Shown one piece after another: positions 9,541 through 58,974 of a stretch of 64,000 nucleotides of DNA (the stretch's first letter is position 1; each line of letters begins with the position of its first letter). The DNA is from an uncultured Gammaproteobacteria bacterium. Its GTDB lineage: Bacteria; Pseudomonadota; Gammaproteobacteria; Steroidobacterales; Rariloculaceae. The notes beneath the pieces are model-generated. The model saw nothing but the letters and a program-made list of their open reading frames with translations. It was not told the origin of the DNA and ran no database searches. Made by a program: the position numbers and the translations under genes. The stretch lies in the NCBI GenBank assembly GCA_963782445.1, contig CAWAJM010000001.1:926224-990223 (forward strand). The letters are read 5' to 3'.

Positions 9541-9566
9541 CGCTCTTATTGTAATTCGGGCCGCGG

Positions 9567-40177: not shown

Positions 40178-40253
40178 GGGCCGTTAGCTCAGTTGGTAGA
40201 GCACCGGACTTTTAATCCGTTGGTCGTAGGTTCGAGCCCTACACGGCCCACCA
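40178..40253 (+). tRNA. tRNA-Lys (anticodon UUU)
   Basis: 76-nt cloverleaf. The acceptor stem is GGGCCGT/ACGGCCC, the anticodon loop is CTTTTAA, the T-arm is GTAGGTTCGAGCCCTAC, and CCA is encoded. Confidence 0.93.
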
Positions 40254-41019
40254 ACGAATACAAAGACTTACGTGAAACATCGGGGGTCTCGGAGCCCGGA
40301 TTCCCAAAACCTCCCGCCTGATTTGGGGACTGGTTCCCCCGTAGCCGCTGTAACCGGCGATCTCGGGAAGCCCTTTCCCACACATCCTCCCCACGATCCG
40401 ATCCGCCCAGTTGGCGTCTGTCATCAGGGACACTAGGGACGGTTCAATCGACGGGACGCGATGTCGAACTGAGTGCTTCCACGGCACCGGGCCCCCGCCA
40501 TTCGACAAACGCAACGAAGAGGGTGCGGGAAGGATGCCCGGTGCCACTACGTTTGCAGTTGATTGCATCGTTAGTGGTGCAACTAATTGCATTTTAGACC
40601 CGCGTACGAGACCATTTTACTTCTAGCGGGGCATTCAGGTATGCTCTTCACCGGTCCCCAGCAGCGGCACCATTGCCAAGCCTTAGTGCCCAGTCGTGGC
40701 ACGATATGTGGCCAGATCAGGGCCACAAGATCCCGAACTGAGTTTGTTGTTCTTCAGCTCCGGTTACCGGGCTCCAGAAATTGGAAAGCCCGGAGGTTTG
40801 CCGACCTGCCGGGCTGAATGCTGAAAGCGCTCATATTGTTGTAGCCCGACCCGGGTAACCATACCACCGCTGAAATCGAATCCGGGACGCTGAAATCGCG
40901 TAGTCCCGGCGCGGCGTGTGTGCCGTGCGAGCGGTCCGGGGAGCTACGACATCGCGGGCAGGGGTCGCACCGTCTGTAACGTCCCCGGCAGCCGAGCGTT
41001 GTGCGACGAGGCGGAGCCC

Positions 41020-41406
41020 TCAGATGCCGCGAGGAAGGACATGACGGTTTACCGCGACGTAGTCCTCGAAGTCGCCGGTCGTAACGGAGCTCGAATACAT
41101 CGAGCCCAGGTAGAGCGTCTTGGAATCCGGGAACACGACGATGAGCCCGCCGGCGCCCTTGGCGAACGCGCCCTCGAGCGTTTGCGGCACATGGATTTCC
41201 TTCGACCACAGCATCACGGGCGCACTCCGGTCCACGGCGTTGCCTTCGAGATTGCCCTCGAGCGAGCGCCCGTGAATCTTAACGTGTTCGACCTTGACGG
41301 GCTTTGCGCCGGCCACGACGTCGGAAACCGCCGTTTTGACCTGGCCGAAGACGCCACCGGCGACGAGGGGACAAGCGGCGGCGAGGACGAGAGCAAGCTT
41401 CGACAT
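41020..41406 (-). pseudogene. Remnant of a secreted 'putative esterase' (esterase D-like alpha/beta hydrolase): internally deleted and C-terminally truncated
   Basis: The 128-aa ORF MSKLALVLAAACPL... keeps family blocks SLEGNLEGNAVDR and GSMYSSSVTTGDFEDY. It lacks the YPVxYLLHG block between them and the catalytic GxSxG region. Confidence 0.45.
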
Positions 41407-41420
41407 GGCGCCTGCTTCGA

Positions 41421-42359
41421 CTATTCGGCCCAACGCAGGACCAGCGGATCGAGTGTTCTGGCGATATTGAGCAGTCCCGCGCGCTGGCGCGGGTGAACGG
41501 GCTGCACGGGCAGCCTGACCGCATCGGAGCGGATCACGCCGCCTTCCTTCATGAGGACCTTCGCCGTCGCGAAACCGCACTGCCGGTTCTCGTAGTTGAT
41601 GAGCGGCAGCCAGCGTGCGTAGGCGGCCGCGGCCTCCTCGCGGCGGCCGGCCGCGAATGCATCGTAGATCTCGCGGATGCCGTCGGGATAACCGCCGCCC
41701 GTCATCGTGCCGGTGGCGCCCGCCTCGAGATCGGCCATGAGCGTGATGCCTTCCTCGCCGTCCCACGGGCCCTCGATCCGATCGCCGCCCAGCGCGATCA
41801 CCGCGGCCAACTTGTTCGCCACGGGCGGCACCTCGAGCTTGACGTAGCGCACGTTCGCGGTCTCGCGGGCGATACGCGCGAGCAATTCGGCCGACAACGG
41901 CGTGCCTGCGACCGGTGCGTCCTGAATCATGATCGGGATGGACACCGCGGCCGACACGTCGGCGAAGAAATCCGCAATGGCGGGCTCGGGCACTCGCAGC
42001 GTCGCGCCGTGATACGGCGGCATGATCATGACGAGCGCCGCGCCCGCGGCCTGTGCCCGCCGGCAGCGCTCGGCGCATACGCGCGTGCTGAAGTGCGTCG
42101 TCGTCACGATGATCGGCACGCGGCCCGCGACGTGGTCGAGCACGAGGTGCATGACGCGTTCGCGCTCGTCGTCGGTCAACGAAAACTGCTCCGAGAAGTT
42201 CGCGAGGATGCAGATGCCGTGCGATCCGGCGTCGATCATGAAGTCGATACAGCGGCGCTGCCCATCGGGATCGAGCGCCCCTTCGGCGTCGAAGATGGTC
42301 GGGGCGACAGGGAAGACGCCGCGGTACGGACGCGTGCGTTCCGGGTCCGAATCCGCCAT
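41421..42359 (-). CDS. DHDPS/NAL-family L-2-keto-3-deoxyarabinonate dehydratase (Azospirillum AraD-like)
   Basis: 312 aa. By my recollection, long stretches match A. brasilense AraD: GVFPVAPT, DFMIDAGSHGICILANFSEQF, GRVPIIVTTTH, MPPYHGAT, IPIMIQDAP, GPWDGEE, LDPLVLRWA. Confidence 0.8.
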   Translation of the reverse strand: MADSDPERTRPYRGVFPVAPTIFDAEGALDPDGQRRCIDFMIDAGSHGICILANFSEQFSLTDDERERVMHLVLDHVAGRVPIIVTTTHFSTRVCAERCRRAQAAGAALVMIMPPYHGATLRVPEPAIADFFADVSAAVSIPIMIQDAPVAGTPLSAELLARIARETANVRYVKLEVPPVANKLAAVIALGGDRIEGPWDGEEGITLMADLEAGATGTMTGGGYPDGIREIYDAFAAGRREEAAAAYARWLPLINYENRQCGFATAKVLMKEGGVIRSDAVRLPVQPVHPRQRAGLLNIARTLDPLVLRWAE

Positions 42360-42368
42360 GGTGCGCTC

Positions 42369-42650
42369 CTAATGGTTGTAACGGCCGACGGGCGCGCCGC
42401 TGCGCCCGGCCGGGAAATCGAAATCCACGCCCCGGTCCGCCAGCAGCACGTGCTCGATATAGAGCTTCGCATAGCCGCGCTCGGTGTGCAGCGCGGGCCG
42501 GCGCCATTCGGCAAAGCCGCGGGCGAGCTCGGCGTCGGTGACGTGCAGGTGGACGCCCCCACGCAACGGGCTCTTCGGCAGCGGCAGATTGCCCACTTCG
42601 TTTATGCCCGGATAACCCTTCGGGTCGCAGTTCGATTCGGAGGCGCTCAT
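42369..42650 (-). pseudogene. C-terminal remnant of an IlvD/Edd-family (AraC-like arabinonate) dehydratase
   Basis: The 93-aa ORF reads DPKGYPGINEVGNLPLPKSPLRGGV | HLHVTDAELARGFAEWRRP...ERGYAKLYIEHVLLADRGVDFDF. This corresponds to the last roughly 150 aa of the family with about 55 aa missing at the bar. The N-terminal roughly 430 aa are absent. Confidence 0.6.
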
Positions 42651-42927
42651 TACTCAGACAATATACGGCGGCGCCGGGCGATTCAATGGTCCCTGTCCTC
42701 GCTTCGACAGCACGCGCCGCCGCCGTCAATTCATCGAGCGCTGCGGCGTTCCTTGGAGCGCGCGATGCGTATGCGCGCAAACTTCTTTGCCCGGCCCATT
42801 ACCGAAAACATCCAGAATTTCTGCGGCTTGTGATCATGAACCTCGCCGTGCACGAGCGCAAAAGCCGGTGTTGCGGGCACTTGGCCTACAATCGATTCCG
42901 GTCGTGAAAAGGGGGGCGTGGCGAACG

Positions 42928-43827
42928 ATGAACCGAAGCGCAAACGACGCCGATGCGCAGCCATCGATGCGGAGCGGGACCCGTTGCGTGTGCGACGCGC
43001 GGGCGCTGCTCGGCGAGGGGCCGTTGTGGGTGGCTCGAGAGAACGCCGTCTATTGGGTGGACATCAAGGGCAGGGCGCTGCACCGCCTGCTTCTCGATAC
43101 CGGTGTCCATACGAGCTGGGCGATGCCGGAGATGCTCGGCTGGATCGTCGCGCGGCGCGAGCGGCCCGGGTTCATCGCGGGGTTCGAGAGCGGCTTCGCG
43201 CACTTGTTCCTCGACCCGGTGCGCATCGAGCCGATCTGCGCGCCGGAGGCTCACCTGCCAGCGAGCCGGATGAACGACGCGGCCGTCGATCGGGCCGGCC
43301 GCATCTGGGCGGGCACTATGGACGACGCGGAGACGGAAGCTACGGGATGCCTGTACCGGCTCGATACCGAAGGGAGCTGCACGCGGCACGACACGGGTTA
43401 CGTCGTCAGCAACGGTCCGACGTTCGGCCCGGACCACGACGTGCTGTATCACACGGACACGACGCGGCGCACGATTTATCGGTTTGCGCTCGCTCCGGAC
43501 GGCAGCCTCGGCAAGCGGGAACCGTTCGTCGTTTTCCCGCAGGAGTGGGGGTGGCCGGACGGCATGGCGACGGACGCCGACGGCGGCATTTGGGTCGCGC
43601 ATTGGGGCGGCGCTCGGCTCAGCCGCTTCCTACCCGACGGCCGGCTCGATCGCGTGATTACGATGCCCGTTTCACAGGTCACGAGCTGTTGCTTTGCCGG
43701 CCCGGGCTTGGAGCGAATGTTCGTGACGACGGCAGCGATCGAACGCGAGAGCGAACCCCTGGCTGGCTGCCTTTTCGAGGTCGAGCCCGGCGTTCGCGGT
43801 GCGCCCACTTACGCCTACGGGGGCTAG
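42928..43827 (+). CDS. SMP-30/gluconolactonase/LRE-family lactonase (candidate pentono-1,4-lactonase)
   Basis: Motifs GEGPLW, NDAAVDRAGRIWAGTM and WPDGMATDADGGIWVAHWGG are present. An alternative start lies at MRSG (42967). Confidence 0.8.
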   Translation: MNRSANDADAQPSMRSGTRCVCDARALLGEGPLWVARENAVYWVDIKGRALHRLLLDTGVHTSWAMPEMLGWIVARRERPGFIAGFESGFAHLFLDPVRIEPICAPEAHLPASRMNDAAVDRAGRIWAGTMDDAETEATGCLYRLDTEGSCTRHDTGYVVSNGPTFGPDHDVLYHTDTTRRTIYRFALAPDGSLGKREPFVVFPQEWGWPDGMATDADGGIWVAHWGGARLSRFLPDGRLDRVITMPVSQVTSCCFAGPGLERMFVTTAAIERESEPLAGCLFEVEPGVRGAPTYAYGG

Positions 43828-43908
43828 CAGGCCAGGTTAGACGCCATCGCGGATCACTGGAAAGATGTGCCCAGCCCTGACGAGGGCGGGTAGCGGGCGC
43901 TCTCGGGC

Positions 43909-45306
43909 CTATTGGGCGGAGGCGGACTCGATGGCCGCCGCAACACCGAAGTGCTTGCAGGTCGCAGCGATGAGGCCGCCGGCGATCATCATAGCGCCCC
44001 CGAGGATGGCGATCCCCGCGGAGGGATTGCCGAATACATCGGTCAAGGAACCCAGCAGATAGGGGCCGAAGAAGCCGCCGAGATTGCCGATAGAGTTGAT
44101 GATGGCCAAGCCCGCCGCCACGCCCAAACCCATGAGAACCGATCCTGGAAAACTCCAGAATAGGGCCGAGGAGACGAGGCCGCCCGCGCTCGCGAGCGTG
44201 ATGAATGTGACGGTCACCAACGTGCTGCCGGGCAAGACCGCGCTGAGCGCAAGGCTTGCGCCGCCGATGACGGCGGCAGCCGTCGCGTGCCAACGTTTCT
44301 CGTTTCGGCGCTCCGCGTGGCGGGTGCCGAGCAGCGCGATGATCGCCGCGACGAGATAGGACGCCGCCGTGATGAGGCCGATGTTGAACACGGACTTCAC
44401 GCCGCTGTTCTCGATGATCGTAGGAAGCCAGAAGTTGATGCCGTACACGCCCATTACGATCAGCAGAAAAATGCCGGTGAACAGCCATAGCTCCCGTACT
44501 GCCAGAAGAGCACGCAGCGGAAAATCGCGTTTGGTCTTCGCATCTTGCTCGAGACGCTCGTTCAACAACGTCTTCTCGTGAGCCGCAAGCCAGGGCGCGT
44601 CGTCGATCTTGTCCTTGAGATAGAACATGATCGATACGCTGAACAGCAGCGCCGGGGCCGCTTCGATCAGGTAGAGCCATTGCCAGTCGTAAAGGCCGCC
44701 CAGTCCGTTGAACCTATCCATGATACCGCCGGAGATAGGCCCGCCCACGACGTAGGACAGGGGCTGTGCGGTCAGCAGCAGGGCGACGGCGCGGCTCTGC
44801 CTGTGCGCCGGGTACCAGTAATTCAGATATAGAATCACGCCGGGGTAGAATCCGGCTTCGGCGGCCCCGAGCAGAAATCGCAGGCCGTAGAACACCTTGT
44901 CGACGCCGAGCCCGGTCATGTGGGCGAAGGGTTCGGTGAATGCCATGGCCCCCGATATGATGCCCCAGGTCACCATGATGCGGGCCATCCAGGTGCGCGC
45001 ACCGACGCGGTGCAGGATCAGGTTGCTCGGCACTTCGAAGAGGAAATAGCCGATGAAAAACACGCCGGCGCCGAAGCCATAGGCCGTTTCCGAAAGGTTC
45101 AGATCGGAAAGCATGTGCAGCTTCGCGAAGCCGACGTTCACGCGGTCCAGATAGGCGACGAGGTAGCAGGCGCCGAGAAACGGCAGAAGACGCCAGGTAA
45201 CCTTCTCGTAGAGGCGCTCTTCGGTCTCTAACTTGTCGTTCGCATCCGCGTAAGCAACGTGATCGCTGTGAACGTCTCTAACCTTCGTAACGCTCTGTTC
45301 CGTCAC
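43909..45306 (-). CDS. MFS transporter, anion:cation symporter (ACS; sugar-acid/galactonate permease-like) family
   Basis: A GTG start gives (M)TEQSV. Motifs YLDRVNVGFAK and GFYPGVILYLNYWY are typical of ACS-family MFS. The 580-aa track ORF is an over-extension. Confidence 0.7.
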   Translation of the reverse strand: MTEQSVTKVRDVHSDHVAYADANDKLETEERLYEKVTWRLLPFLGACYLVAYLDRVNVGFAKLHMLSDLNLSETAYGFGAGVFFIGYFLFEVPSNLILHRVGARTWMARIMVTWGIISGAMAFTEPFAHMTGLGVDKVFYGLRFLLGAAEAGFYPGVILYLNYWYPAHRQSRAVALLLTAQPLSYVVGGPISGGIMDRFNGLGGLYDWQWLYLIEAAPALLFSVSIMFYLKDKIDDAPWLAAHEKTLLNERLEQDAKTKRDFPLRALLAVRELWLFTGIFLLIVMGVYGINFWLPTIIENSGVKSVFNIGLITAASYLVAAIIALLGTRHAERRNEKRWHATAAAVIGGASLALSAVLPGSTLVTVTFITLASAGGLVSSALFWSFPGSVLMGLGVAAGLAIINSIGNLGGFFGPYLLGSLTDVFGNPSAGIAILGGAMMIAGGLIAATCKHFGVAAAIESASAQ

Positions 45307-45397
45307 CGCGCAGCCTTTTCTGTTAATCGTTCTTATGGAGCCGTGGCGATCGAGACGATCGCGCGCGGAGAACGCGTGGCGTTCGCACGGTCCTGAC

Positions 45398-46948
45398 TCA
45401 TCGGCCGCTGTCTCGAAGAATGTCAGGCAGCAGAGCCTGAGGCACATCCTGATAACAGACCGGCCGCAGGAACCGGTCGATCGCCAGCGTGCCGACGGAT
45501 GTGCTGCGGCCGTCCGAAGTCGCGGGGAATGGACCACCGTGGACCATGGCGTGGGCCACTTCGACCCCGGTGGGCCAGCCATTGGCCAGGATGCGTCCCG
45601 CGCGTCGCTCCAGGAGCGGCAGGAGTCTTTTCGCCAGCTGCAGGTCGCCATCCTCCATGTGCAGCGTGGCCGTCAACTGGCCTTCCAAAGCCTCGAGGAT
45701 CGCGCAAAGTTCGTCTTTGTCTTCACACCGGATGATCAGCGCGCTGGGCCCGAAGACTTCATGGGTGAGCGAGGGATCGCTGAGAATTTCAGCGGCCTTC
45801 ACAGCGAACAGATAGGTCTCGGCTGAATTGGGCGCGGTGCCGGCCGGTCCGTGGGCCAGAAGCTCTGCCTTTGTCTCACGCCGCAAGCGGTCCACCCCGC
45901 TTTTGTAGGCCGCGTGTATGCCGCTCGTGAGCATCGTGCTGGCGGGCCTCGAGCTCAGCCCCTCGCAGGCGGCAGCTATGAAACGGTTCAGCTCAGCGCC
46001 CTCGAGGGCAATCACGAGACCCGGATTGGTGCAGAACTGCCCGACGCCCATCGTGAGCGAATTGAGGAAACCGTCGGCGATGGCCTCGGCCCGGGCCGTG
46101 AGCGCTCCCGGCAGCAGCACGATCGGATTGACGCTGCTCATTTCGGCATAGACGGGGATAGGCTCGTCACGTCGGGCTGCGATTTCCATCAATGCGAGGC
46201 CGCCCTTGCGCGACCCCGTGAAGCCTACCGCCTTGATGTGCGGATCGGCCACGAGCGTCGCACCCAGTTCGTTGGAGGGACCGGCCAACATCGAAAACAC
46301 GCCTTCCGGTAATTTGCAGGCCTTCACAGCCGCCACGAGCGCGCCCGCCACCATCTCGCTGGTACCGGGATGCGCCGGATGCGCCTTCGCAACCACGGGA
46401 CAACCCGCCGCCAACGCGGCTGCCGTGTCCCCGCCGGCGACGGAAAAGGCCAGCGGGAAGTTGCTCGCGCCGAAGACCGCCACGGGCCCCAGAGGAATCT
46501 TTCTCAGCCTCAGATCCGGCCTCGGTATGGGCTTGCGATCCGGGAGCGCGGGATCGATGCGGACGCCTTGCCAGCGATCGTCGCGCACTTCCTCCGCGAA
46601 CAACCGAAGCTGGTTGCAGGTCCGCGCAAGCTCGCCGCTGAGCCGCGCCTGAGGCAAACCGGTCTCGGCTTCCGCGCGTTCGGTCAGCAAGGTGCCGAGC
46701 CCGGCAATCTTGTCTGCCGCAGTCTCGAGAAAGGCGGCGCGGGTTTCAGGATCGGTGGCGCTGTAGGGGCCGAACGCTGCCGCCGCGAATTCGCACGCTC
46801 GACGGACGTCCGCCGGCCCCGACACGCTGAAGGCCGGCGTCAGTGCCTTGTCCCGCTTTGGATCGACGGCGTGAAAGGTCTCGTTCGACCTGACGCGGCG
46901 GGAACCGATAAAGAACTCGCCCGTTAGGGCGAGCTTATTCTCCGGCAT
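45398..46948 (-). CDS. Alpha-ketoglutaric semialdehyde (2,5-dioxovalerate) dehydrogenase, long (~520 aa) ALDH subtype
   Basis: Start is MPENKLALTGEFFIG. Family blocks include VFGASNFPLAFSVAGGDTAAALAAGCPVVAKAHPAHPGTSE, FTGSRKGG and GVGQFCTNPG. Confidence 0.8.
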   Translation of the reverse strand: MPENKLALTGEFFIGSRRVRSNETFHAVDPKRDKALTPAFSVSGPADVRRACEFAAAAFGPYSATDPETRAAFLETAADKIAGLGTLLTERAEAETGLPQARLSGELARTCNQLRLFAEEVRDDRWQGVRIDPALPDRKPIPRPDLRLRKIPLGPVAVFGASNFPLAFSVAGGDTAAALAAGCPVVAKAHPAHPGTSEMVAGALVAAVKACKLPEGVFSMLAGPSNELGATLVADPHIKAVGFTGSRKGGLALMEIAARRDEPIPVYAEMSSVNPIVLLPGALTARAEAIADGFLNSLTMGVGQFCTNPGLVIALEGAELNRFIAAACEGLSSRPASTMLTSGIHAAYKSGVDRLRRETKAELLAHGPAGTAPNSAETYLFAVKAAEILSDPSLTHEVFGPSALIIRCEDKDELCAILEALEGQLTATLHMEDGDLQLAKRLLPLLERRAGRILANGWPTGVEVAHAMVHGGPFPATSDGRSTSVGTLAIDRFLRPVCYQDVPQALLPDILRDSGR

Positions 46949-47233
46949 GAAGGCGGCTCTCCGGATTGAGACGTGTCGAAGGGCTAAAGCCCGCACCGTA
47001 GCCAATTACTCCTACATAAAAGCACCGACGCGTCGTCCGATCAAGACTCGTATCCCCGGAAGCCGTCTCTACCAAAGAGGCGATTTGATTGCAAGCGTGC
47101 TGCCATGCCCTCGCTTCCGGTCCGAGCCTTGGCTAGAAGTCTGTTGTATGAGTTAATTGGAGGGGCGAGCGTCGCCGTGTTGCCCGCTAGTCAAGTGGGC
47201 CTTCATGCCAGCGCCGCTCTCAGGGGGGATCGC

Positions 47234-48556
47234 ATGGTCATAAGCGGCGAAACCAATCCGCCGGGGGCGCTCGCTCGCGGGCACGGGAACATTCGCTACG
47301 GTCTCGCGCTCAGCATTCTGGCGACCGTGTTCTTCATGTGGGGATTCGCCACGGTGCTGAACGACATTCTCGTTCCGCATCTGAAGGCCGTGTTCGAACT
47401 GAACTACGCGAAGTCTCTGCTCATTCAGTTTGTGTTCTATCTCGCCTACCTGCTGATGTCCCTGCCGTCGGCGAAGCTTCTGGAACGCATCGGCTACAAG
47501 CCCTCGATCATCGTGGGGCTCATGGGCATGGCGCTCGGTGCGTTCATGTTCGTGCCGGCTGCCGTATTCGTGTCCTACGGCACCTTCCTCGCCGCGCTCT
47601 TCGTGCTCGGGACCGCAATCGCGCTTCTACAGGTTGCGGCAAATCCTTATGTCGCCGTGATCGGTCCGCCGGAGACGGCATCGAGCCGGCTCAATCTCGT
47701 GCAGGCGCTGAATTCCGCCGGCACCATGGTCGCGCCCGTCTTCGGCGGCCTGTTGATCCTGGGCCGCAGCGCATCCGGCACTGCGAGCGACGAGGCCTCG
47801 GCAGGCCTGAGCCTGGCCCAACGCATCGCCGATGCCCAAGCCGTGCGCTTGCCCTATGTTCTGATTGCCGTAGTCCTGATCGTGCTGGCCCTGATCGTCT
47901 GGCGCACGAAGCTGCCGGCACTGGGCGAGGCGACCCGGCGCGCCGCCCGTGAGGAACGCAAGAAGCATTCTCTCTGGCGCCACCGCAATCTCGTCCTCGG
48001 CGTTCCTGCGATCTTCATCTATCTGATCGCGGAGATTGGCGTCGGCTCCACGCTTGTCAACTTTATTTCGCTGCCCCAAATCGGCGCGATGACTCATGAA
48101 CGCGCGGCGGACTATCTGGTGCTATTCTGGGGCGGTGCGATGGTGGGCCGTTTTCTCGGCGCCGGCATCATGCGTTTCGTGAGCGGCGAGCGTTTGCTGG
48201 CTTTGGTCAGCATTTGCGCACTGGTGTTGAGCGTCACCGGCGTGATGACGGACGGGCACGTCGCGATGTGGTGCCTGATCTCGCTCGGCCTATTCCACTC
48301 GATCATGTTCCCGACCATCTTCACGCTCGGCATCCGGGGCCTCGGCCCGCTGACCGAAGAAGGTTCGGGCCTGCTGATCATGGCGATCGCCGGCGGCGCG
48401 CTCTCGGCGCTGCAGGGCGTGATCGCGGATCATTTCGGGCTGCAGTTCTCCTATTTGCTGCCGGCCGCATGCTACGTTTATGTATTGTTCTACGCGGTTT
48501 GGGGCTGCCGTCCGACGGAGGTTTTGCCGGCGGAGCAGCTCGCCGAGGCCGAGTGA
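47234..48556 (+). CDS. FucP/glucose-galactose-type MFS sugar:H+ symporter
   Basis: The block FFMWGFATVLNDILVPHLKAVFELNY is characteristic of the L-fucose permease family. Start is set at MVISGE. Confidence 0.8.
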   Translation: MVISGETNPPGALARGHGNIRYGLALSILATVFFMWGFATVLNDILVPHLKAVFELNYAKSLLIQFVFYLAYLLMSLPSAKLLERIGYKPSIIVGLMGMALGAFMFVPAAVFVSYGTFLAALFVLGTAIALLQVAANPYVAVIGPPETASSRLNLVQALNSAGTMVAPVFGGLLILGRSASGTASDEASAGLSLAQRIADAQAVRLPYVLIAVVLIVLALIVWRTKLPALGEATRRAAREERKKHSLWRHRNLVLGVPAIFIYLIAEIGVGSTLVNFISLPQIGAMTHERAADYLVLFWGGAMVGRFLGAGIMRFVSGERLLALVSICALVLSVTGVMTDGHVAMWCLISLGLFHSIMFPTIFTLGIRGLGPLTEEGSGLLIMAIAGGALSALQGVIADHFGLQFSYLLPAACYVYVLFYAVWGCRPTEVLPAEQLAEAE

Positions 48557-49306
48557 TCAGCGGGCCTTCTTGATCTTCTTCACTTTCTTCGGCGAGCTCC
48601 GCGCGTTCATCGTGTCGGCAAGGGCCAGATCCACCAGATTGGACGTTGCCGCATAGGCCGCATTGGCGTTCGAAGCCGCGATGGCGTCGAACACCTTGCG
48701 GTGGTCCGGAACCGGATCGCGCGGCAGCGGGCTTTCCCGCTGCTTGAAGATCGTCGTCCAGGATATCGCCGCGCCTACGCCGCTCGTTAGCGAGACGAGA
48801 AATACATTGCCCGTAGCGCGCAGGATTGCCGCGTGAAAGGCGAGATCGGCATCGCGGCCCGAAGGCGTGGCAAGCGTATCGGACGCCATCGTCGCCAGGG
48901 CGTCCTCCATCTCGGCCAGATCCTTGTCGGTGCGGCGTTGGGCGGCGAGCGCGGCGGCCTCCGGTTCGATCATGCGGCGGAGCTCGAACAGATTATTGAG
49001 GAAGGCCTCATCCGGCTCGAACTCGAACACCCATGACAGCACGTCCGGGTCGAGCAAATGCCAGGTCGACTGCGGGCTTACCTTTGTTCCGACCTTGGGC
49101 CGCGAGACGACGAGTCCCTTGGCGGCCAGAATGCGGACGGCCTCGCGATAGACGGTGCGAGAGACATGGAGGGTCTCGCTCGCGGAGATTTCCCCCTCGA
49201 GCAACTGCCCGGGCTCGTATTTGCCGGAGATGATCTTGACGCCGATATTCCTGGCTATTTCGCCGTGCAGACGAAGCCGCTTCTTGGTATTGGAGTTGCG
49301 CGGCAT
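48557..49306 (-). CDS. GntR/FadR-family transcriptional regulator (FCD ligand domain)
   Basis: The N-terminal wHTH reads SETLHVSRTVYREAVRILAAKGLVVSRPKVGT. The C-terminal all-helical FCD-like domain contains DLAFHAAIL. Confidence 0.88.
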   Translation of the reverse strand: MPRNSNTKKRLRLHGEIARNIGVKIISGKYEPGQLLEGEISASETLHVSRTVYREAVRILAAKGLVVSRPKVGTKVSPQSTWHLLDPDVLSWVFEFEPDEAFLNNLFELRRMIEPEAAALAAQRRTDKDLAEMEDALATMASDTLATPSGRDADLAFHAAILRATGNVFLVSLTSGVGAAISWTTIFKQRESPLPRDPVPDHRKVFDAIAASNANAAYAATSNLVDLALADTMNARSSPKKVKKIKKAR

Positions 49307-49341
49307 GGGATGCCTCCGTTCAGGACGGGCGACGCCGCGAG

Positions 49342-51159
49342 TCAGTGATTATCGCGCGGCGGTCCGAACTTGCGCGCGATGTCCTGATACTTCATTGCCA
49401 TTTCGAGCACCATGCCGTCGCCCATCTGTCCGACGAGCCCGCGCTGGATTTCCTGCCATGGCGTTTGTGAAGCCGGGTAGGAGTAGCCGCCGCGCGCCTC
49501 GAGATCGGCGCGCCGGCGCGCGAGTTCCTTCTCCGAGATGAGAATATTCGCCGTACCGCGCCTGAGGTCGACGCGCACCCCGTCGCCGTTCTGCACTAGC
49601 GCGAGACCGCCGCCCGCTGCCGCTTCCGGCGAGGCGTTGAGGATCGAGGGTGACGCGGACGTGCCGGATTGCCGTCCGTCGCCGACGCAGGGCAGCGCCG
49701 TAATCCCGCGTTTGATGAGCGCCGCAGGCGGCTGCATGTTGACGACTTCGGCGCCGCCCGGATAGCCGATCGGCCCCGTGCCCCGGATGAAGAGGATGCA
49801 GTGCTCGTCGATATCCAGCGCCGGGTCCTCGATACGTGCGTGATAGTCCTCCGGCCCATCGAACACGATGGCACGTCCTTCGAACGCCTCGAGATCCCTC
49901 GGGTTGGAGAGAAAGCGCTCGCGGAACTCGTCGCTGATCACGCTCGTCTTCATGATGGCGTTATCGAAAAGGTTTCCGCTCAACACGATGAAGCCGGCGT
50001 CCCGCCGCAGCGGATCATCGAATGGGCGGATCACCTTCGTGTCCATGATCTCGCGCCCGCGACAGTTCTCGCCGAGCGTCCTGCCGTTGACCGTCTTGGC
50101 GTCTTCCGCAATGAGCTCGTGCTTCATGAGCTCGTTCACGACGACAGGCACGCCGCCCGCACGATGGTAGTCCTCGCCGAGATACTCTCCGGCGGGCTGC
50201 AGATTCACGAGCAGCGGGATCTTGCGGCCATAGGTCTGCCAGTCTTCGAGCGGCAGGTCGACGCCGACGTGGCGTGCGATCGCGGTGATATGGATCGGCG
50301 CGTTGGTCGAGCCCCCGATGGCGGAATTGACCACGATCGCGTTGCGGAAGGCATCGGGGGTCAGGATGTCGGTGGGCTTCAAGTCTTCCGCCACCATCTC
50401 GACGACGCGCTTGCCGGTGAGATAGGCCATCTGCTGGCGCTCCCGGTAAGGCGCGGGGATCGATGCGGAGCCCGGCAGCTGCATGCCGAGCACCTCGGCG
50501 AGCGAATTCATCGTCGTCGCCGTACCCATCGTGTTGCAGTAGCCCGTCGAGGGGGCGGAGCTCGCGACGAGCTCAATGAACTCAGCATAGTCGAGCTCGC
50601 CTGCGGCCATCATCTGGCGCGCCTTCCACACGATGGTGCCGGAACCGGTGCGTTCGCCGCGATGCCAGCCATTCAGCATCGGGCCGACCGAAAGCGCGAT
50701 CGCCGGAATGTTCACGGTGGCCGCCGCCATGAGACAAGCCGGCGTGGTCTTGTCGCAGCCGATGGTCAGCACCACGCCGTCGAGCGGATAACCGTAGATC
50801 AGTTCGACGAGGCCGAGATAGGCGAGGTTGCGATCGAGGCTCGCCGTCGGTCGTTTGCCGGTTTCCTGAATCGGGTGAACGGGAAATTCGATGGCGATGC
50901 CGCCGGCCTCACGGATGCCTTCACGGATCCGATCTGCGAGCACTATATGGTGACGATTGCAGGGCGAGAGATCCGAGCCGGTCTGAGCAATGCCGATGAT
51001 CGGCTTACCCGACTGCAGCTCCTCCCGGGTCAGGCCGAAATTCAAATAGCGCTCCAGGTAGAGCGCCGTCATCGACGGGTTGTCCGGGTTGTCGAACCAG
51101 GCCCGCGAGCGCAACCGGCGCGGGGCGGACGATGAACCGTCATCGCGATCGTCAGCCAT
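49342..51159 (-). CDS. IlvD/Edd-family pentonate dehydratase (Caulobacter XylD-like)
   Basis: 605 aa. Blocks [72 protein letters not shown] and C-terminal [16 protein letters not shown] closely parallel XylD as I recall it. Confidence 0.85.
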
Positions 51160-51215
51160 GCTTTTGCCTTAACCTTGGCCCTGAAAGTCTTTGACAGCTT
51201 TCGCCGTCGATGTCA

Positions 51216-51230
51216 ATTTGTACTAGAAAT
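51216..51230. promoter_or_regulatory. Candidate GntR-type operator in the divergent dehydratase/dehydrogenase promoter region
   Basis: ATTTGTACTAGAAAT is palindromic at 12 of 15 positions and contains the GT-N-AC core typical of FadR-subfamily operators. A perfect TTGACA lies at 51191-51196. Confidence 0.3.
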
Positions 51231-51239
51231 GTCCACGAA

Positions 51240-52175
51240 ATGGGAGGGCGATTGGGGAAGCTGCGCATCGGCCTCGTGGGAGCCGGAAAGATTGCGCGGG
51301 ACCAGCACGTGCCGGCCATCGCAGCAAACGAAGACTTTGAGCTCGTAGGCGTCGTCGATTCTGCCGCGCGGCTCGAGAACGTCGCAAGCTTCGGCTCGCT
51401 GGAGGATCTGTTCGGCGCGGGTCCGACCGCGATCGTCGTTTGCACGCCGCCGCAGGTGCGCTACGCCGTTGCCCGCGCGGCGCTCGCCGCCGGCAAGCAC
51501 GTGCTGCTGGAAAAGCCGCCCGCGGCCACCGTCGGCGAGTTGGCGGATTTGCGCAGCAGGGCCGAGGGGCCTGGCCTCACACTGTTCACCGCGTGGCACT
51601 CGCAATTTGGCCCGGCGGTTCCCGCGGCCAAGCAGTGGATCTGCGCACATCGACCGCGTCGAATCACGGTGACATGGCGCGAGGATGTGCGCCGCTGGCA
51701 TCCCGGTCAGGCCTGGATCTGGGAGGAAGGCGGCTTCGGGGTATTCGATCCCGGCATCAACGCCTTATCGATCCTAACGGCGATTCTGCCCGGTCGCGTC
51801 TTCGTAACCGCCGCGAGTATCAACGTCCCGGAAAACCGTGCTACGCCGATTGCCGCCAGACTGAACCTCGGCACGAGCGAGGGGGCGCAGATCGGGGCGG
51901 AATTCGACTGGCGGCAAACCGGCACGCAGACCTGGGACATCGCTGTCGAAGCCCAGGATGGTGCCGGAATGCGGCTCTCGCTGGGCGGCCATCGGCTCTC
52001 GGGCAACGATGTGCCGGCCGCCGATGCACTCGAAGGCGAGTATCCGGCGATCTACCGCCGATTCGCGACGCTTGTCGCGCACGGGAGAAGCGAAGTTCAT
52101 CCCGATCCATTGCGGCTCGTCGCAGACGCGTTCCTCGTCGCGGAGCGGCGTACCGTCGCGCCGTTTGTCGAGTGA
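51240..52175 (+). CDS. Gfo/Idh/MocA-family aldose 1-dehydrogenase (L-arabinose / D-galactose 1-dehydrogenase-like)
   Basis: The Rossmann N-terminus is RIGLVGAGKIARDQHVPAI. Blocks GKHVLLEKPPAAT and FTAWHSQF resemble Pseudomonas galactose 1-dehydrogenase and Azospirillum AraA. An alternative start lies at 51210. Confidence 0.78.
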   Translation: MGGRLGKLRIGLVGAGKIARDQHVPAIAANEDFELVGVVDSAARLENVASFGSLEDLFGAGPTAIVVCTPPQVRYAVARAALAAGKHVLLEKPPAATVGELADLRSRAEGPGLTLFTAWHSQFGPAVPAAKQWICAHRPRRITVTWREDVRRWHPGQAWIWEEGGFGVFDPGINALSILTAILPGRVFVTAASINVPENRATPIAARLNLGTSEGAQIGAEFDWRQTGTQTWDIAVEAQDGAGMRLSLGGHRLSGNDVPAADALEGEYPAIYRRFATLVAHGRSEVHPDPLRLVADAFLVAERRTVAPFVE

Positions 52176-52329
52176 GTCGGACGAGGGATAAGCCGAGGGG
52201 TCGGATGCGCCTTACGTCGCTTTTGACCGGCGCGCAACAATCCCCTATTGTATGAGTAATCTAGAACGATAAGAGGCTGCGCCTGATCGACCGCCGACGC
52301 TCGACATATTGCGCAGCGGAAGGAAGAAG

Positions 52330-53499
52330 ATGGGGTCTCACAGCAAACGGACGGGCACCCTGCCTGCGGGTTTGATGCTCGCCGGGGCAGTCATCGCGAG
52401 CGTCGTCGTGGGCCATGCTGCATCGGCGGCCACGGCTGCGAAGAGCGTCTTCGGTACGCTGCGCGACGGCACAAAGATCGAATCGGTTACCCTCCGCAAC
52501 GCCGAGGGCATGACTGCGCGGATCATGACGCTCGGCGCCGCTCTCCAGTCGCTCAACGTCCCGGACCGCGACGGCCGGAGCGCCAATGTGGTGCTCGGCT
52601 ACGCCACGCCGCAGAAGTATCTCGACGTGCCGAACTATTTCGGCGCCACCGTCGGCCGTTTCGCCAACCGCATCGCGGGCGCCAGCTTCAAGCTCGACGG
52701 CAAGACCTATCACCTCGAGGCGAACGACCACGGCAACTCGCTTCACGGCGGCTTCAAGGGCTTCGATAAGCGGATCTGGACGATCCAGTCGGTGTCGTCC
52801 GGCCAGCCCGCGAGCGTCACGCTGACCTATCGGAGCCCGGACGGCTCGGGCGGCTATCCCGGCAACCTGAACGTCACGGCCGTCTATGCGCTGAGCGACG
52901 ACAATGTTCTGTCGTTGACCTACACGGCGACGACGGATGCGCCCACCATCGTCAACATCTCTAACCACAGCTTCTGGAACCTGCGCGGCGAGGCGAGCGG
53001 CCACGATGTGATGGACGAGGAGTTGACCATCGACGCGGACGCCATCACGCCGGTCGACAAAAAGCTGATCCCGACGGGCGAGATCCGCAAGGTCGACGGC
53101 ACGCCGTTCGATTTTCGCAAGGGTCGGGCCATCGGCGCACGGATCCGGGACGGTAAGGCGGAGCAGCTTCTGATCGGCAAGGGCTACGACCACAATTTCG
53201 TGCTCAATGGCCGTTCGGGCGGCGCGGCGCGCTTTGCCGCGCGTCTTGCGGATCCTCATTCCGGTCGCGTGATGGAGATCTACACGAATCAGCCTGGCGT
53301 GCAGCTCTATACCGGCAACTTCCTGGATGGGTCTGTCGCGGGCACCAGCGATCATGTCTATCGTCAGACCGACGCGGTGGTCATGGAGCCGCAGCATTTC
53401 CCGGACGCGCCCAATCAGTCGAATTTCGCGCCCGCCACGCTGCGGCCGGGCGAGACTTACACGAACAAGATCGAGTACCGGTTCTCGACGATCAAGTGA
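52330..53499 (+). CDS. galM: Aldose 1-epimerase (mutarotase), secreted
   Basis: A signal peptide is followed by NSLHGG, YDHNFVLN and EPQHFPDAPN. AGGAAGAAG precedes the ATG. Confidence 0.85.
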   Translation: MGSHSKRTGTLPAGLMLAGAVIASVVVGHAASAATAAKSVFGTLRDGTKIESVTLRNAEGMTARIMTLGAALQSLNVPDRDGRSANVVLGYATPQKYLDVPNYFGATVGRFANRIAGASFKLDGKTYHLEANDHGNSLHGGFKGFDKRIWTIQSVSSGQPASVTLTYRSPDGSGGYPGNLNVTAVYALSDDNVLSLTYTATTDAPTIVNISNHSFWNLRGEASGHDVMDEELTIDADAITPVDKKLIPTGEIRKVDGTPFDFRKGRAIGARIRDGKAEQLLIGKGYDHNFVLNGRSGGAARFAARLADPHSGRVMEIYTNQPGVQLYTGNFLDGSVAGTSDHVYRQTDAVVMEPQHFPDAPNQSNFAPATLRPGETYTNKIEYRFSTIK

Positions 53500-53559
53500 C
53501 CGTCGTCGGCCGGCGCCGGCCCGAATAGGGGCCGTGGCGAAATCCATAAGGAGGCGAGG

Positions 53560-55137
53560 GTGACGAGGCAGGCTAAACAGCGCCATGCGGCGATCCTGAC
53601 GGTTTTCGCAGCTTTTGTCTCGGGCCCCGCCCTGACTCAAACGACGCTCTCGGCAAGTGTGACTATCCATGCGGAAAAGCCGGGAGCGCAGATCAGTCCC
53701 GAGCTTTTCGGCCAGTTTTCAGAGCATCTCGGTCACGGTATCTACGGCGGTCTCTGGGTCGGCAAGGACTCGAAGATCCCCAACACGGACGGTCTCCGGA
53801 ACGATGTGATCGCCGCGCTCAAGGACCTGCGCGTGCCGGTCGTGCGCTGGCCCGGCGGCTGCTTCGCCGATGAATATCACTGGCGCGACGGCGTCGGGCC
53901 GGCGGACAAAAGGCCCGTCACCGTAAACACCAACTGGGGCGGCGTCCCGGAACCGAATTCGTTCGGCACCGACGAGTTCATGAGATTCGTCCAGATGATC
54001 GGCACGAAGGCCTATGTGAACGCCAACGTCGGCACCGGCACGCCGGCCGAGATGGCCGACTGGCTCAAATACATGACCGCCGATCAGGACACGACGCTCG
54101 TCCGCATGCGCACGGCGAACGGCCACAAGGATCCCTACAAGGTGCCCTTCTGGGCGATCGGCAACGAAACCTGGGGCTGCGGCGGCAACATGACGCCGGA
54201 GTATTACGTCGACCTGTTCCGCCGCTATTCGACCTTCCTCAAATCGCCCCCGGGCACCCGACCGCTGATCATCGCAAGCGGCGGCCACGACGATAACGGC
54301 CCGGTCTGGACCCGCACGATTCTCGAAAGTGGCGGCCCGAATGTCGGCGCCATCACGTATCACTACTACACGATCCCCTCGCGCACTCACGACTGGCAGC
54401 ACAAGGGCAATTCGACGGGGTTCCCGGAGAGCGAATGGATCTCGACCATGGTGAACGCGCTCGAGATCGGCGATCACATCGCCGATAACATCAAGGTCAT
54501 GGACGAGCTCGATCCGGACAGAAAGGTCGCTCTGTTCGTCGACGAATGGGGCACGTGGTACGACCCGGAACCGGGCCGCAACCCCGGCTTTCTCTATCAG
54601 CAGAACACGGTGCGCGATGCGGTGGTGGCCGCGACCGAGCTCCATATCTTCATGAAGCACGCAGACCGCATCCGCATGGCCAACATCGCGCAAACGATCA
54701 ATGTATTGCAGGCCATGATCCTGACAGACGGGCCGAAAATGGTTTTGACCCCGACCTACCACGTCTTTCACATGATGATTCCGTTCCAGGGAGCGACCAG
54801 CCTGCCGTCCGATGTCGATTCGCCGGCTTATGCCGATGCCGGCATGTCGGTCCCGGCGATCAGCGTAGCGGCCGCCCGGGATTCCAACGGGGAAATCGTC
54901 TATTCCTTGACCAACCGCGATCCGACACGGCCCGTGAAGGTGTCGACCGTGTTCGAGGGCGCCAACGCGAAGTCGGTGGGCGGTCTTGTGCTTACCGGCG
55001 CCGCGATGGATTCGCGCAACACTTTCGCCCATCCTGATGACGTACATCCAGTGGCGTTCAATGGGGCGAAGCTTTCCGGCGGCAAGCTGACGGTAGACTT
55101 GCCTGCGAAGTCTGTGGTGGTTCTCGAGTTAAGATAG
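53560..55137 (+). CDS. GH51 alpha-L-arabinofuranosidase, secreted
   Basis: GTG start after GGAGGCGAGG, followed by a signal peptide. Blocks VVRWPGGCFADEYHWRDGVGP, WAIGNETWGCGG (acid/base Glu) and FVDEWGTWY (nucleophile Glu) are present. Confidence 0.88.
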   Translation: MTRQAKQRHAAILTVFAAFVSGPALTQTTLSASVTIHAEKPGAQISPELFGQFSEHLGHGIYGGLWVGKDSKIPNTDGLRNDVIAALKDLRVPVVRWPGGCFADEYHWRDGVGPADKRPVTVNTNWGGVPEPNSFGTDEFMRFVQMIGTKAYVNANVGTGTPAEMADWLKYMTADQDTTLVRMRTANGHKDPYKVPFWAIGNETWGCGGNMTPEYYVDLFRRYSTFLKSPPGTRPLIIASGGHDDNGPVWTRTILESGGPNVGAITYHYYTIPSRTHDWQHKGNSTGFPESEWISTMVNALEIGDHIADNIKVMDELDPDRKVALFVDEWGTWYDPEPGRNPGFLYQQNTVRDAVVAATELHIFMKHADRIRMANIAQTINVLQAMILTDGPKMVLTPTYHVFHMMIPFQGATSLPSDVDSPAYADAGMSVPAISVAAARDSNGEIVYSLTNRDPTRPVKVSTVFEGANAKSVGGLVLTGAAMDSRNTFAHPDDVHPVAFNGAKLSGGKLTVDLPAKSVVVLELR

Positions 55138-55170
55138 CGAAGCTACCGCAAAAGGAACGCGCCGGTTCGC

Positions 55171-55572
55171 CTAACAGGGCTTGTTCAGCCCGCGTTCGGC
55201 GAGATTTCTCATATGTGCGCGCATCCAAAATGTCCACGGCGCGGCCGCCTTGGACGTGGTCACGTCGTTGATCAACGTACCGAGCCTCGAACTGGACACG
55301 GCGACTGTGTCGACAAGCTTGTGCAGGCGCATATCGGCGTCGGGCGCCCCAGAGAGTTCGATCGACTCCATGGCGCCGAGATCGTCGCCTTTCACGCTCC
55401 GCGGCTCGACTTCACGCAGGTCCGCGGATGTCGGGGCGAGGCACGACATATCGAAGAGATGACCGTTACGAACGAGAACCGGCGTTGGGCCGTCGGCCCG
55501 ATCGATCCGCCCCGCGAATATGCCCTCTCTCCAGTCTTCCGGTAGATGGCTATCAACGTCGAACAGATCCAT
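55171..55572 (-). pseudogene. In-frame internally deleted remnant of a FAH-family 2-keto-3-deoxy-pentonate dehydratase (Caulobacter XylX-like)
   Basis: MDLFDVDSHLPEDWREGIFAGRIDRADGPTPVLVRNGHLFDMSCLAPTSADL matches the XylX N-terminus. HKLVDTVAVSSSRLGTLINDVTTSKAAAPWTFWMRAHMRNLAERGL matches its C-terminus. About 270 central residues, including the catalytic FAH fold, are missing. Confidence 0.6.
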
Positions 55573-55925
55573 GGCTCGGCACTCCTGCTTGTCGCCCCTG
55601 TATCGATTACGCAAACGTCGCGGCACCGCGATTGCAGTCTCCCGAGACTCATCCGTTGCTCGCGTTGCGTTTTGCGATGTCATTACTCATACTAATTCCG
55701 AGACCGTAGATGGCGAAATTCCCATAAACAAGCCGGTCTGCTGTCCCACCAGGGCGTCGACGACGCGCTCTTCGGGCAGGACGTGATATTCGTGCGCATC
55801 GACGTATTCGTGCACGTTGACCCGAGGCTGTCCAACGAACGCCGTTTCTCGACCTTCTTCCAGCCGCTGGGGAGTGAAGCGGTCGAAAAGGCGAAGTTCC
55901 CGCGAATCGTGAGAGGAAACAAATC

Positions 55926-57610: not shown

Positions 57611-57674
57611 TGCCAGCGATAGGGCGGTCTTCCGCGATCTAGCCGAGCCGGAACGACCCGCCGCTATTCGAGCG

Positions 57675-58862: not shown

Positions 58863-58974
58863 TTTCTACCTCCGGGATTCACTTTTGGCTTTTTGGTCAA
58901 ACGAAAGGCCGAATCACTCGAGGGGCCTCGCTCAATGACCGAAATCTCCCCTTTCGGTCGACGCGAACGGCAAG

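Follow-up and report, generated by a model that had tools for sequence, protein, structure and literature searches.

The window, which is the whole 64-kb stretch of DNA analysed, contains a candidate L-arabinose cluster (Table 1). A first-pass annotation had claimed that every step of the pathway is present and looks intact. Family searches found all of them at full length, and the earlier coordinates were right to within a few codons.

Table 1 Features of the candidate arabinose cluster, with positions in the window.
Feature	Position	Strand	Match
AraD-like DHDPS/NAL-family putative L-KDP dehydratase, intact	41421..42359	(-)	PF00701
AraC-type (PRK06131/PRK13016) IlvD/Edd pentonate dehydratase remnant, pseudogene	42369..42650	(-)	NF009559
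SMP-30/gluconolactonase-family putative pentonolactonase (AraB/XylC-like), intact	42928..43827	(+)	PF08450, E 1.5e-78
MFS permease, D-galactonate-transporter (sugar-acid) subfamily	43909..45306	(-)	PF07690, TIGR00893
Aldehyde dehydrogenase, probable 2-oxoglutarate semialdehyde dehydrogenase	45398..46948	(-)	PF00171
MFS permease, FucP/GluP sugar:H+ symporter type	47234..48556	(+)	TIGR01272, 320 bits
GntR/FCD transcriptional regulator	48557..49306	(-)	PF00392 + PF07729
IlvD/Edd putative pentonate dehydratase, PRK13017 (XylD) subfamily, intact	49342..51159	(-)	NF009560, 1048 bits
Gfo/Idh/MocA putative aldose 1-dehydrogenase, AraA-like L-arabinose/D-galactose type	51252..52175	(+)	PF01408
Aldose 1-epimerase (mutarotase)	52330..53499	(+)	PF01263, E 1.2e-90
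GH51 alpha-L-arabinofuranosidase	53560..55137	(+)	PF06964
XylX-like (COG3970 FAH) keto-deoxy-pentonate dehydratase, pseudogene	55171..55572	(-)	PDB 9kkt

Intact genes of the cluster

The AraD-like enzyme matches the L-KDA dehydratase structures PDB 3fkk/7c0c at E 4e-128 to 7e-128, with 3fkk itself at 7e-128. Its catalytic Lys is conserved, and so is the Gln in IMIQDAP. The intact IlvD scores 1056 bits against PDB 7m3k, annotated 'galactonate dehydratase', and 829 bits against C. crescentus XylD (5oyn); it shares 61% identity with a Phenylobacterium XylD. The aldehyde dehydrogenase (ALDH) is 58-66% identical to those of sphingomonad and Ancylobacter arabinose clusters, and the Gfo dehydrogenase is 51% identical to a Burkholderia gene that matches PDB 6jnj.

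The lactonase ORF runs from 42787 to 43827(+), and its start is likely at 42928. The GH51 protein reaches E 1.1e-68 against the ArfA model NF051901, which is under that model's curated cutoff. The FucP/GluP-type permease is 56-64% identical to the permease of most sphingomonad arabinose clusters, with one outlier at 34%. The window also holds a carboxylesterase gene, where one missing base splits the reading frame.

A sister genome can be aligned at ~94% nucleotide identity across window positions 41398-59033. Relative to this genome, dN/dS is 0.08-0.18 for the intact genes (AraD-like 0.09, IlvD 0.11, sugar-acid MFS 0.14, ALDH 0.18), and 0.45 for the Gfo dehydrogenase. The intact cluster genes are under purifying selection.

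Two decayed dehydratase genes

Pfam and NCBIfam searches gave no match for the FAH remnant. It does align with PDB 9kkt, a 383-aa FAH-family protein, at residues 2-73 and 336-382 (E 9.6e-24). At the corresponding position the sister genome has an intact 381-aa FAH gene, which over its C-terminal half is 71% identical to XylX of a Phenylobacterium, and the remnant aligns with residues 1-83 and 332-380 of this orthologue. A 744-bp in-frame deletion at 55323/55325 has taken out residues 84-331. The earlier reading of this ORF as a XylX-like FAH remnant is borne out by these two matches. That the XylX-like gene once shared a locus with the XylD-subfamily dehydratase is also upheld, as both L167 and L169 carry the two.

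The IlvD/Edd remnant lies 9 nt upstream of the AraD-like start. It aligns with NF009559, L-arabinonate dehydratase, at model positions 517-574 (E 1.4e-16), with PDB 8ej0 at residues 437-467 and 515-575 (E 3.8e-21), and also with PDB 5j83-5. This is far beyond chance and confirms the IlvD/Edd assignment. The last ~90 codons of the gene are kept, while the first ~436 and ~50 internal codons are missing; within the 64-kb window there is no further trace of it. Against the intact gene of comparison locus L089, 58 of 87 residues are identical (67%), around a 51-residue gap.

The AraC-like label holds as well, since in a Burkholderia-type cluster AraD sits directly downstream of a 583-aa PRK06131-type IlvD. 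The closest relatives of the AraD-like gene, in L089, L087 and L090 (81-88% identity, with L089 at 88%), have an intact AraC-type gene immediately upstream. In L015, L024 and L047 it is found 8 nt upstream of an AraD-like gene. The proposal that the AraD-like gene was once paired with an intact AraC-type gene is upheld by the pairing that L089, L087 and L090 still have.

The sister genome has no lactonase and a shorter IlvD remnant, and the deletion junctions are defined. The lactonase is missing through a 1106-bp deletion, and the IlvD remnant is short by a further 199 bp, start codon included. Both deletions are flanked by microhomology. By parsimony, the lactonase indel is probably a deletion in the sister rather than an insertion in the window genome. 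The AraC-type loss is older than the split from the sister, and the FAH loss is found only in the window genome. Judged from their sequences, neither of the two short ORFs is functional; one is the relic of an AraC-type dehydratase gene and the other of a XylX-like FAH gene.

It is extremely improbable that the ORFs are genuine small genes, such as regulatory or moonlighting peptides under selection. Both do have an ATG and an open frame (93-aa and 133-aa products), the FAH deletion is in frame, and both are called as proteins in an NCBI/ENA-derived collection, where each is however a singleton cluster. In the sister, FAH is full-length instead of short and the IlvD ORF has lost its start. The FAH pieces have dN/dS values of 0.67 and 1.13, which rest on ~28 substitutions, against 0.08-0.18 for most neighbours. 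The IlvD remnant is also much further from L089 than the adjoining AraD is (67% versus 88%). Somewhat less improbable, but still very unlikely, is that the broken genes are artefacts of assembly. The genomes seem to be assembled from metagenomes, and some small indels may therefore come from sequencing error; the split carboxylesterase of the window could be of this kind, and related contigs of similar assembly show broken genes too. A clean 744-bp deletion and an IlvD loss of ~1.3 kb are however unlike typical indel errors. The non-synonymous excess in the FAH pieces fits real inactivation, and the IlvD truncation is common to two independently assembled genomes.

Related loci and known systems

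The orthologous loci L167 and L169, from more distant relatives within the lineage, resemble the window in IlvD (89-90% identity), GntR (88%, the regulator adjoining IlvD), GH51 (83-84%) and FAH (76-79%). They also hold a XylB equivalog (NF053674, 425 bits), a XylC-like lactonase, an SSF transporter and a third type of keto-deoxy-pentonate dehydratase, GguC/AraD1 (NF040903, 518 bits). The window locus has no trace of GguC/AraD1, and the XylB SDR is missing from all 64 kb of the window. Beyond the locus, L169 is flanked by just IS fragments and genes for an esterase and an MFS protein. Its GguC and carboxylesterase genes are both in pieces.

An L-arabinose pathway, AraA-AraE, was reportedly described for 'Azospirillum brasilense' by Watanabe et al. 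in 2006. PDB 6JNJ and 3FKK are its AraA and AraD, and both sequences map to a Burkholderia-type cluster. The window shares the Gfo, SMP-30, IlvD/Edd, DHDPS-type and ALDH families with this pathway, and its five reaction types. In the published cluster, however, a PRK06131/PRK13016 dehydratase adjoins AraD, where the window has a ~90-codon relic and a PRK13017 paralogue instead. Transport there is by an ABC system rather than MFS permeases, and GH51 and mutarotase are part of the window cluster only.

Genuine Azospirillum clusters, on A. brasilense Sp7 plasmid p3 (NZ_CP012917) and in A. canadense, have a PRK13017-type IlvD at 80-81% identity (81% in Sp7) and an AraD homologue at 71-73%. The Sp7 cluster also has the Gfo dehydrogenase, the SMP-30 lactonase and, adjoining the AraD homologue, an ALDH at 63%. 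These clusters differ in having no relics, ABC transport, a LysR regulator and another gene order. The same pairing of XylD-subfamily IlvD and AraD is intact and free of relics in metagenome loci L100, L122 and L139. The surviving combination therefore has precedents, and the claim that such a hybrid is undescribed does not stand.

The Caulobacter-type xylXABCD operon for D-xylose has a XylD of the same NCBIfam subfamily as the intact IlvD, and a XylX that the dead FAH gene resembles. The window ALDH is however only 26% identical to the XylA type, its XylX is non-functional, and one has to go to the more distant L167 and L169 for XylB and XylC-like genes. L-arabinose clusters of sphingomonads and rhizobia that use GguC/AraD1 have in common with the window the IlvD type (75-81%), the Gfo dehydrogenase and the GntR regulator. 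Those of sphingomonads add a FucP-type MFS and mutarotase, and several also GH51 and ALDH. Their L-KDP dehydratase is GguC/AraD1 (NF040903), whereas the window has a DHDPS-type enzyme in its stead.

Function and history of the locus

The best explanation, at a probability of about 70%, is a working L-arabinose route in a composite locus, where redundant or orphaned genes have since decayed. Family membership suggests a Weimberg-type route, oxidative and without phosphorylation, that leads from the side chains of arabinan or arabinoxylan to 2-oxoglutarate. GH51 would free L-arabinose, mutarotase would equilibrate the anomers, and the Gfo-family dehydrogenase would turn the sugar into a lactone, to be opened by the SMP-30 lactonase. 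The PRK13017-type IlvD/Edd would then convert L-arabinonate to L-KDP, the AraD homologue would make 2-oxoglutarate semialdehyde from this, and the ALDH would yield 2-oxoglutarate. Two MFS permeases and the GntR/FCD regulator would round off the unit. That the intact IlvD is the L-arabinonate dehydratase is plausible from shared C2-C4 stereochemistry and context. Across the cluster, substrates are assigned from homology and from the genomic context.

The two ruined dehydratase genes show that the cluster was assembled from older sugar-acid modules. Against this history, none of the genomes of the lineage that were compared has both modules fully intact together. The core of the cluster (GntR and IlvD; Gfo, mutarotase and GH51; FAH; carboxylesterase) is the local form of a hemicellulose-sugar locus. 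XylB, the XylC-like lactonase, SSF and GguC/AraD1 in the distant relatives point to D-xylose and L-arabinose branches around one IlvD. A second block has joined this core, with AraD, the AraC-type IlvD, the lactonase and the sugar-acid MFS. It is like the L089 module, where the lactonase is 78% identical and the MFS directly upstream of IlvD_B-AraD is 69% identical. The L089 likeness covers these four genes, and the adjacent ALDH and sugar MFS are provisionally counted with the block. GguC, SSF, xylB, the xylC-like lactonase and GH3 were lost first, followed by truncation of the AraC-type IlvD before the sister diverged. A single 744-bp deletion then killed FAH in the window genome, while in the sister the lactonase and a further part of the IlvD remnant were deleted instead.

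A cluster mainly for D-galactose or another sugar acid is improbable. The best solved IlvD match is annotated as a galactonate dehydratase, one MFS is of the D-galactonate-transporter subfamily, and in orthologous Ancylobacter-type clusters DgoK and DgoA come next after IlvD. General searches of the window, not aimed at either, turned up no DgoK or DgoA however. The GH51 arabinofuranosidase, the close homologue of L-KDP-specific AraD and the semialdehyde-type ALDH argue for arabinose, and the same IlvD type is found in sphingomonad arabinose clusters with GH51 and GguC. More credible, but still doubtful, is the first-pass proposal that two complete, redundant modules, araC-araD and xylD-xylX, each lost a dehydratase and left an undescribed hybrid. 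Part of this stands: the remnants are genuine and belong to the two types named, elsewhere AraC-type and AraD genes are conserved neighbours, and relatives hold XylX-like, XylB and XylC-like genes beside this IlvD. The reciprocity does not. The losses were sequential and unpaired. The resident L-KDP dehydratase GguC was also lost, so that the history is no symmetric swap: AraD displaced GguC, and two other genes became pseudogenes. The surviving pairing is intact in Azospirillum and metagenome loci, and published work had already noted the mosaic make-up of such clusters (PMC6336799). Nor were the modules redundant, as FAH-type enzymes act specifically on D-KDP and DHDPS-type ones on L-KDP (PMC7374468, PMC6336799). 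For the composite L-arabinose locus, this means that the FAH loss ended a D-xylose branch and did not remove a spare copy of an arabinose step. The dead FAH gene is the last piece of that branch.

Gene content and the two relics

The region from 41.4 to 55.7 kb of the window has a G+C content of about 64%. Pfam, NCBIfam and PDB sequence searches recovered every gene that a first-pass annotation had listed for it.

Features of the arabinose-oxidation cluster and its flanks, in window positions
Feature	Positions	Strand	Evidence
tRNA-Lys(UUU)	40178-40253		
DHDPS-family protein (AraD homologue)	41421-42359	-	3FKK/7C0C, E about 1e-128 (3fkk, E 6.6e-128)
IlvD/Edd remnant, 93-codon ORF	42369-42650		C-terminus of L-arabinonate dehydratase model NF009559, E 1.4e-16
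SMP-30 lactonase	42928-43827	+	PF08450, E 1.5e-78, profile matched over full length
Sugar-acid MFS permease	43909-45306	-	D-galactonate-transporter subfamily
Aldehyde dehydrogenase (ALDH)	45398-46948	-	PF00171, full length
FucP/GluP-type MFS permease	47234-48556	+	TIGR01272
GntR/FCD regulator	48557-49306	-	PF00392, PF07729
IlvD/Edd dehydratase, 605 aa	49342-51159	-	NCBIfam subfamily PRK13017, 1048 bits
Gfo/Idh/MocA dehydrogenase	51252-52175	+	PF01408
Mutarotase	52330-53499	+	PF01263
GH51 arabinofuranosidase	53560-55137	+	PF06964
FAH remnant	55171-55572		9KKT residues 2-73 and 336-382, E 9.6e-24
TAT-signal carboxylesterase, two ORFs	55926-57610 (55926-56588, 56585-57610)	+	

The pathway itself is a known one, a Weimberg-type L-arabinose route of which the chemistry and all enzyme families have been described before. 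The lactonase qualifies as a pentonolactonase of the SMP-30 family. The intact IlvD is a full-length IlvD/Edd pentonate dehydratase: PF00920 and PF24877 cover it end to end, and it scores 1048 bits with NF009560, against a cutoff of 684. By family match and by residues, the DHDPS protein is an L-KDP (keto-deoxy-pentonate) dehydratase of the DHDPS/NAL type. Aligned with its A. brasilense homologue, it conserves both the Schiff-base lysine and the glutamine that stands in place of the aldolase tyrosine; the roles of these residues are taken from PMC9795676. The Gfo dehydrogenase, by family a candidate L-arabinose 1-dehydrogenase, is 51% identical to a Burkholderia gene equal to PDB 6jnj. The ALDH, a putative 2-oxoglutarate semialdehyde dehydrogenase, is 58-66% identical to those of other arabinose clusters and reaches no curated equivalog cutoff. 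We infer that dehydrogenase, lactonase, IlvD, AraD and ALDH form a complete route from L-arabinose to 2-oxoglutarate, fed by the GH51 enzyme.

Both relics are real, and belong to the families first proposed for them. The IlvD/Edd remnant ends 9 nt before the start of the DHDPS gene. It aligns only to residues 437-467 and 515-575 of the solved enzymes 8EJ0 and 5J83-5, which means that some 436 N-terminal and some 50 internal codons are gone. A complete AraC-type enzyme has about 575-585 residues and an N-terminal IlvD/Edd domain, which this ORF lacks, and tblastn found no further AraC-type IlvD fragment in the window. Comparing the remnant with the intact IlvD gave no information, because the paralogues diverge at the C-terminus.

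The FAH remnant has no Pfam or NCBIfam match; it was recognised by PDB sequence search and by comparison with relatives. Its match, 9KKT, is a 383-aa FAH-family structure for which a literature search found no publication. Relative to a complete XylX/D-KDP dehydratase (about 380 aa, COG3970 FAH, with the FAH catalytic domain), residues 84-331 are deleted.

Which dehydratase is which

An ungapped alignment gives the intact IlvD 81% identity to its counterpart in an arabinose-type cluster on plasmid p3 of A. brasilense Sp7. This raised the suspicion that the AraC-like and XylD-like labels had been inverted, which was ruled out: the published cluster is a different one from that on Sp7 p3, whose Gfo and DHDPS proteins show just moderate similarity to AraA (6JNJ) and AraD (3FKK) of the published pathway. 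The published AraD is 96.7% identical to a gene of Burkholderia cenocepacia (L172, NZ_CP091013), and the Gfo gene adjoining it matches 6JNJ with 642 bits over 303 residues. The IlvD directly upstream of AraD in this Burkholderia cluster, 583 aa long, is of the PRK06131/PRK13016 type, so AraC-like is the right name for the remnant. The intact gene falls in the XylD subfamily, PRK13017, with 61% identity to XylD of a Phenylobacterium xylXABCD-like operon. Among solved structures, its best relative is 7M3K, annotated as galactonate dehydratase (1056 bits); C. crescentus XylD 5OYN scores lower, at 829 bits.

As a side observation, the source strain of the classic 'A. brasilense' pathway may not have been an Azospirillum, or its genes may have been acquired.

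Relatives of the locus and its likely history

A sister genome was reached through exact and near-exact protein matches. It is a 5.45-Mb contig (L001, L085) whose DNA is about 94% identical to window positions 41398-59033. Exact look-ups with the proteins of the window itself gave no contig. Where the window has the FAH remnant, the sister keeps an intact 381-aa FAH gene, with PF01557 matching residues 164-352. In the window a single base takes the place of 745 at 55323/55325, which removes a net 248 codons and keeps the frame. This deletion is specific to the window genome.

The lactonase is absent from the sister's cluster, where 1106 bp are missing (window 42739-43844), flanked by the near-repeat CATCGAG / CATCGCG. 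By parsimony this would be a deletion in the sister, whose pathway would use either spontaneous lactone hydrolysis or another lactonase. Its IlvD remnant is shorter by another 199 bp (window 42458-42656, with ATATA microhomology), start codon included. The non-IlvD sequence immediately upstream of the remnant is common to both genomes, so the large 5' truncation is older than their split.

Between window and sister, most intact genes have a pairwise dN/dS of 0.08-0.18; the two FAH pieces stand at 0.67 and 1.13. Short ORFs kept under purifying selection would be another explanation of the relics; in the sister one is a full-length gene and the other has no start codon. Judged by sequence, both relics are decaying pseudogenes and not conserved small genes. 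Separately, Gfo stands out among the intact genes with a dN/dS of 0.45, three to five times the values of its neighbours, and its protein is 88% identical to the sister's where the neighbours reach 94-98%.

The first-pass annotation had proposed that relatives be checked for intact counterparts of both relics, and these exist. Among 80 metagenome loci centred on AraD homologues, an intact AraC-type gene lies directly upstream of the closest AraD relatives, L089 (88%), L087 (87%) and L090 (81%). L089 has a lactonase, followed by GntR, Gfo, mutarotase, sugar-acid MFS, IlvD and AraD. The remnant is 67% identical to its IlvD over 87 aligned residues, while lactonase and sugar-acid MFS are 78% and 69% identical to those of the window. 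Identity is no more than 52-56% for Gfo, mutarotase and GntR, which means that AraD, lactonase and sugar-acid MFS do not share their history with the other genes of the window locus.

For the other half, the comparison took in 80 genome loci built around the intact IlvD type (75-81% identical), and keto-deoxy-pentonate dehydratases were counted within 10 kb. The third type of this enzyme, GguC/AraD1 (NF040903), occurs at 33 of the 80 loci. The DHDPS type occurs at 4, three of which also carry an AraC-type IlvD, and the FAH type at one; at 42 none was detected. A sphingomonad gene between Gfo and ALDH was considered as XylX-like and rejected, as it is GguC/AraD1.

The sister's FAH has its closest homologues (76-79%) in L167 and L169, orthologous loci of more distant relatives. 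There IlvD is 89-90% identical, GntR 88%, GH51 83-84%, mutarotase 80-81% and carboxylesterase 82-87%. The order is GH3, XylC-like lactonase, XylB, carboxylesterase; SSF transporter, FAH; GH51; GguC/AraD1; mutarotase, Gfo; IlvD, GntR; esterase. Both XylB (NF053674, 425 bits against 400) and GguC (518 against 340) score above their curated cutoffs. AraD, AraC-type IlvD and ALDH are absent from both loci. A genome in which both modules are fully intact was not found; extending L169 yielded nothing past the locus but an MFS gene, an esterase and IS fragments.

In L169/L173, GguC/AraD1 and carboxylesterase are each in several pieces (L169 13054-14048 and 5843-7539; L173 5876-7053), and rve-type transposase fragments lie just past the locus. 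This suggests gene decay or long-read indel errors, plus a hotspot of IS-mediated rearrangement. The compared genomes appear to be metagenome assemblies, in which some broken genes may be sequencing errors.

These comparisons make one history the most likely. In it, the resident locus would have had two branches, one for D-xylose (XylB, XylC-like lactonase, XylX-like FAH) and one for L-arabinose (Gfo, GguC/AraD1, GH51, mutarotase), with one PRK13017-type IlvD common to both. D-xylonate dehydration would feed the first, and L-arabinonate the Gfo/GguC branch. A block of AraD, AraC-type IlvD, lactonase and sugar-acid MFS would then have joined in the ancestor of window and sister, along with the neighbouring ALDH and sugar MFS. 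GguC, SSF, XylB, XylC-like lactonase and GH3 would subsequently have gone from the locus, the AraC-type IlvD would have decayed, and the orphaned XylX-like gene would have been lost last, in the window. That one IlvD served both branches, and that the four genomes are successive snapshots of a non-orthologous replacement of GguC/AraD1 by DHDPS-type AraD with stepwise loss of the xylose branch, is tentative; we would put it at roughly one in three.

A different arrangement is seen in Xanthobacteraceae/Ancylobacter loci (L015, L024, L047), where both IlvD types are intact in one cluster ordered GntR, AraC-type IlvD, AraD, ALDH, Gfo, PRK13017-type IlvD, lactonase. DgoK and DgoA lie downstream in L015, the one locus checked for this. 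These paired paralogues suggest that work on L-arabinonate and D-galactonate is divided between them. The Caulobacter-type xylXABCD system also differs. No XylB-like SDR was found in the window, its ALDH is only 26% identical to the XylA type, and its XylX is dead; the set of XylB, XylC-like and XylX-like genes was seen only in the relatives L167 and L169.

It had been proposed earlier that two complete modules once coexisted and that each then lost a different dehydratase. The composite nature stands: the locus joins two modules that lost different dehydratases. The symmetry and the redundancy do not. L-KDP is the specific substrate of the DHDPS type, and D-KDP is preferred or required by the FAH type (PMC7374468; PMC6336799), so the FAH gene was no spare for the arabinose step. 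Nor is the resulting hybrid new, as had been supposed. A. brasilense Sp7 p3 and A. canadense (L027) have the same pairing of PRK13017 IlvD and DHDPS-type AraD without a relic, as do L100, L122 and L139. Since this combination is intact elsewhere, no new biology is implied.

The evolutionary value is modest. Together with three related genomes, the locus shows how a mosaic pentose cluster is assembled, with identifiable deletion junctions: modules merge, and small deletions then remove surplus dehydratases from the non-phosphorylative cluster. Mosaicism of these clusters is explicitly stated in PMC6336799; in the literature it has been inferred from phylogenies only. Should the shared-IlvD history be true, the locus would be a natural time series of mosaic sugar-acid pathway assembly. 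The lineage's PRK13017-type enzyme is also a candidate broad-specificity pentonate dehydratase, which may be of interest for the engineering of Weimberg pathways, in which the dehydratase step is reported to be rate-limiting (PMC9795676).

Flanks and further observations

A further mosaic variant is locus L082, in which the acid-sugar dehydratase is of the enolase type. Its XylX-like FAH consists of two overlapping ORFs (9151-10333) and adjoins an ALDH that shares 60% identity with that of the window; close by are a TonB-dependent receptor and a dehydratase of the enolase superfamily (MR/MLE).

The tRNA-Lys gene of the window directly follows a conserved ruvB / tol-pal / cpoB / queE / queC block. 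Past it lies about 1.1 kb of lower-GC DNA without a recognisable gene (within 40178-41420). Synteny with the sister runs from 41398 to 59033 and the flanks differ beyond; the sugar locus lies in a variable region. Scanning for repeats revealed none that flank the locus in the manner of an island.

The split of the carboxylesterase comes down to one missing base near 56560 (GGATC-GCC against GGATCGGC), which may reflect either a genuine frameshift or an error of sequencing. In the sister this gene is intact, at 561 aa.
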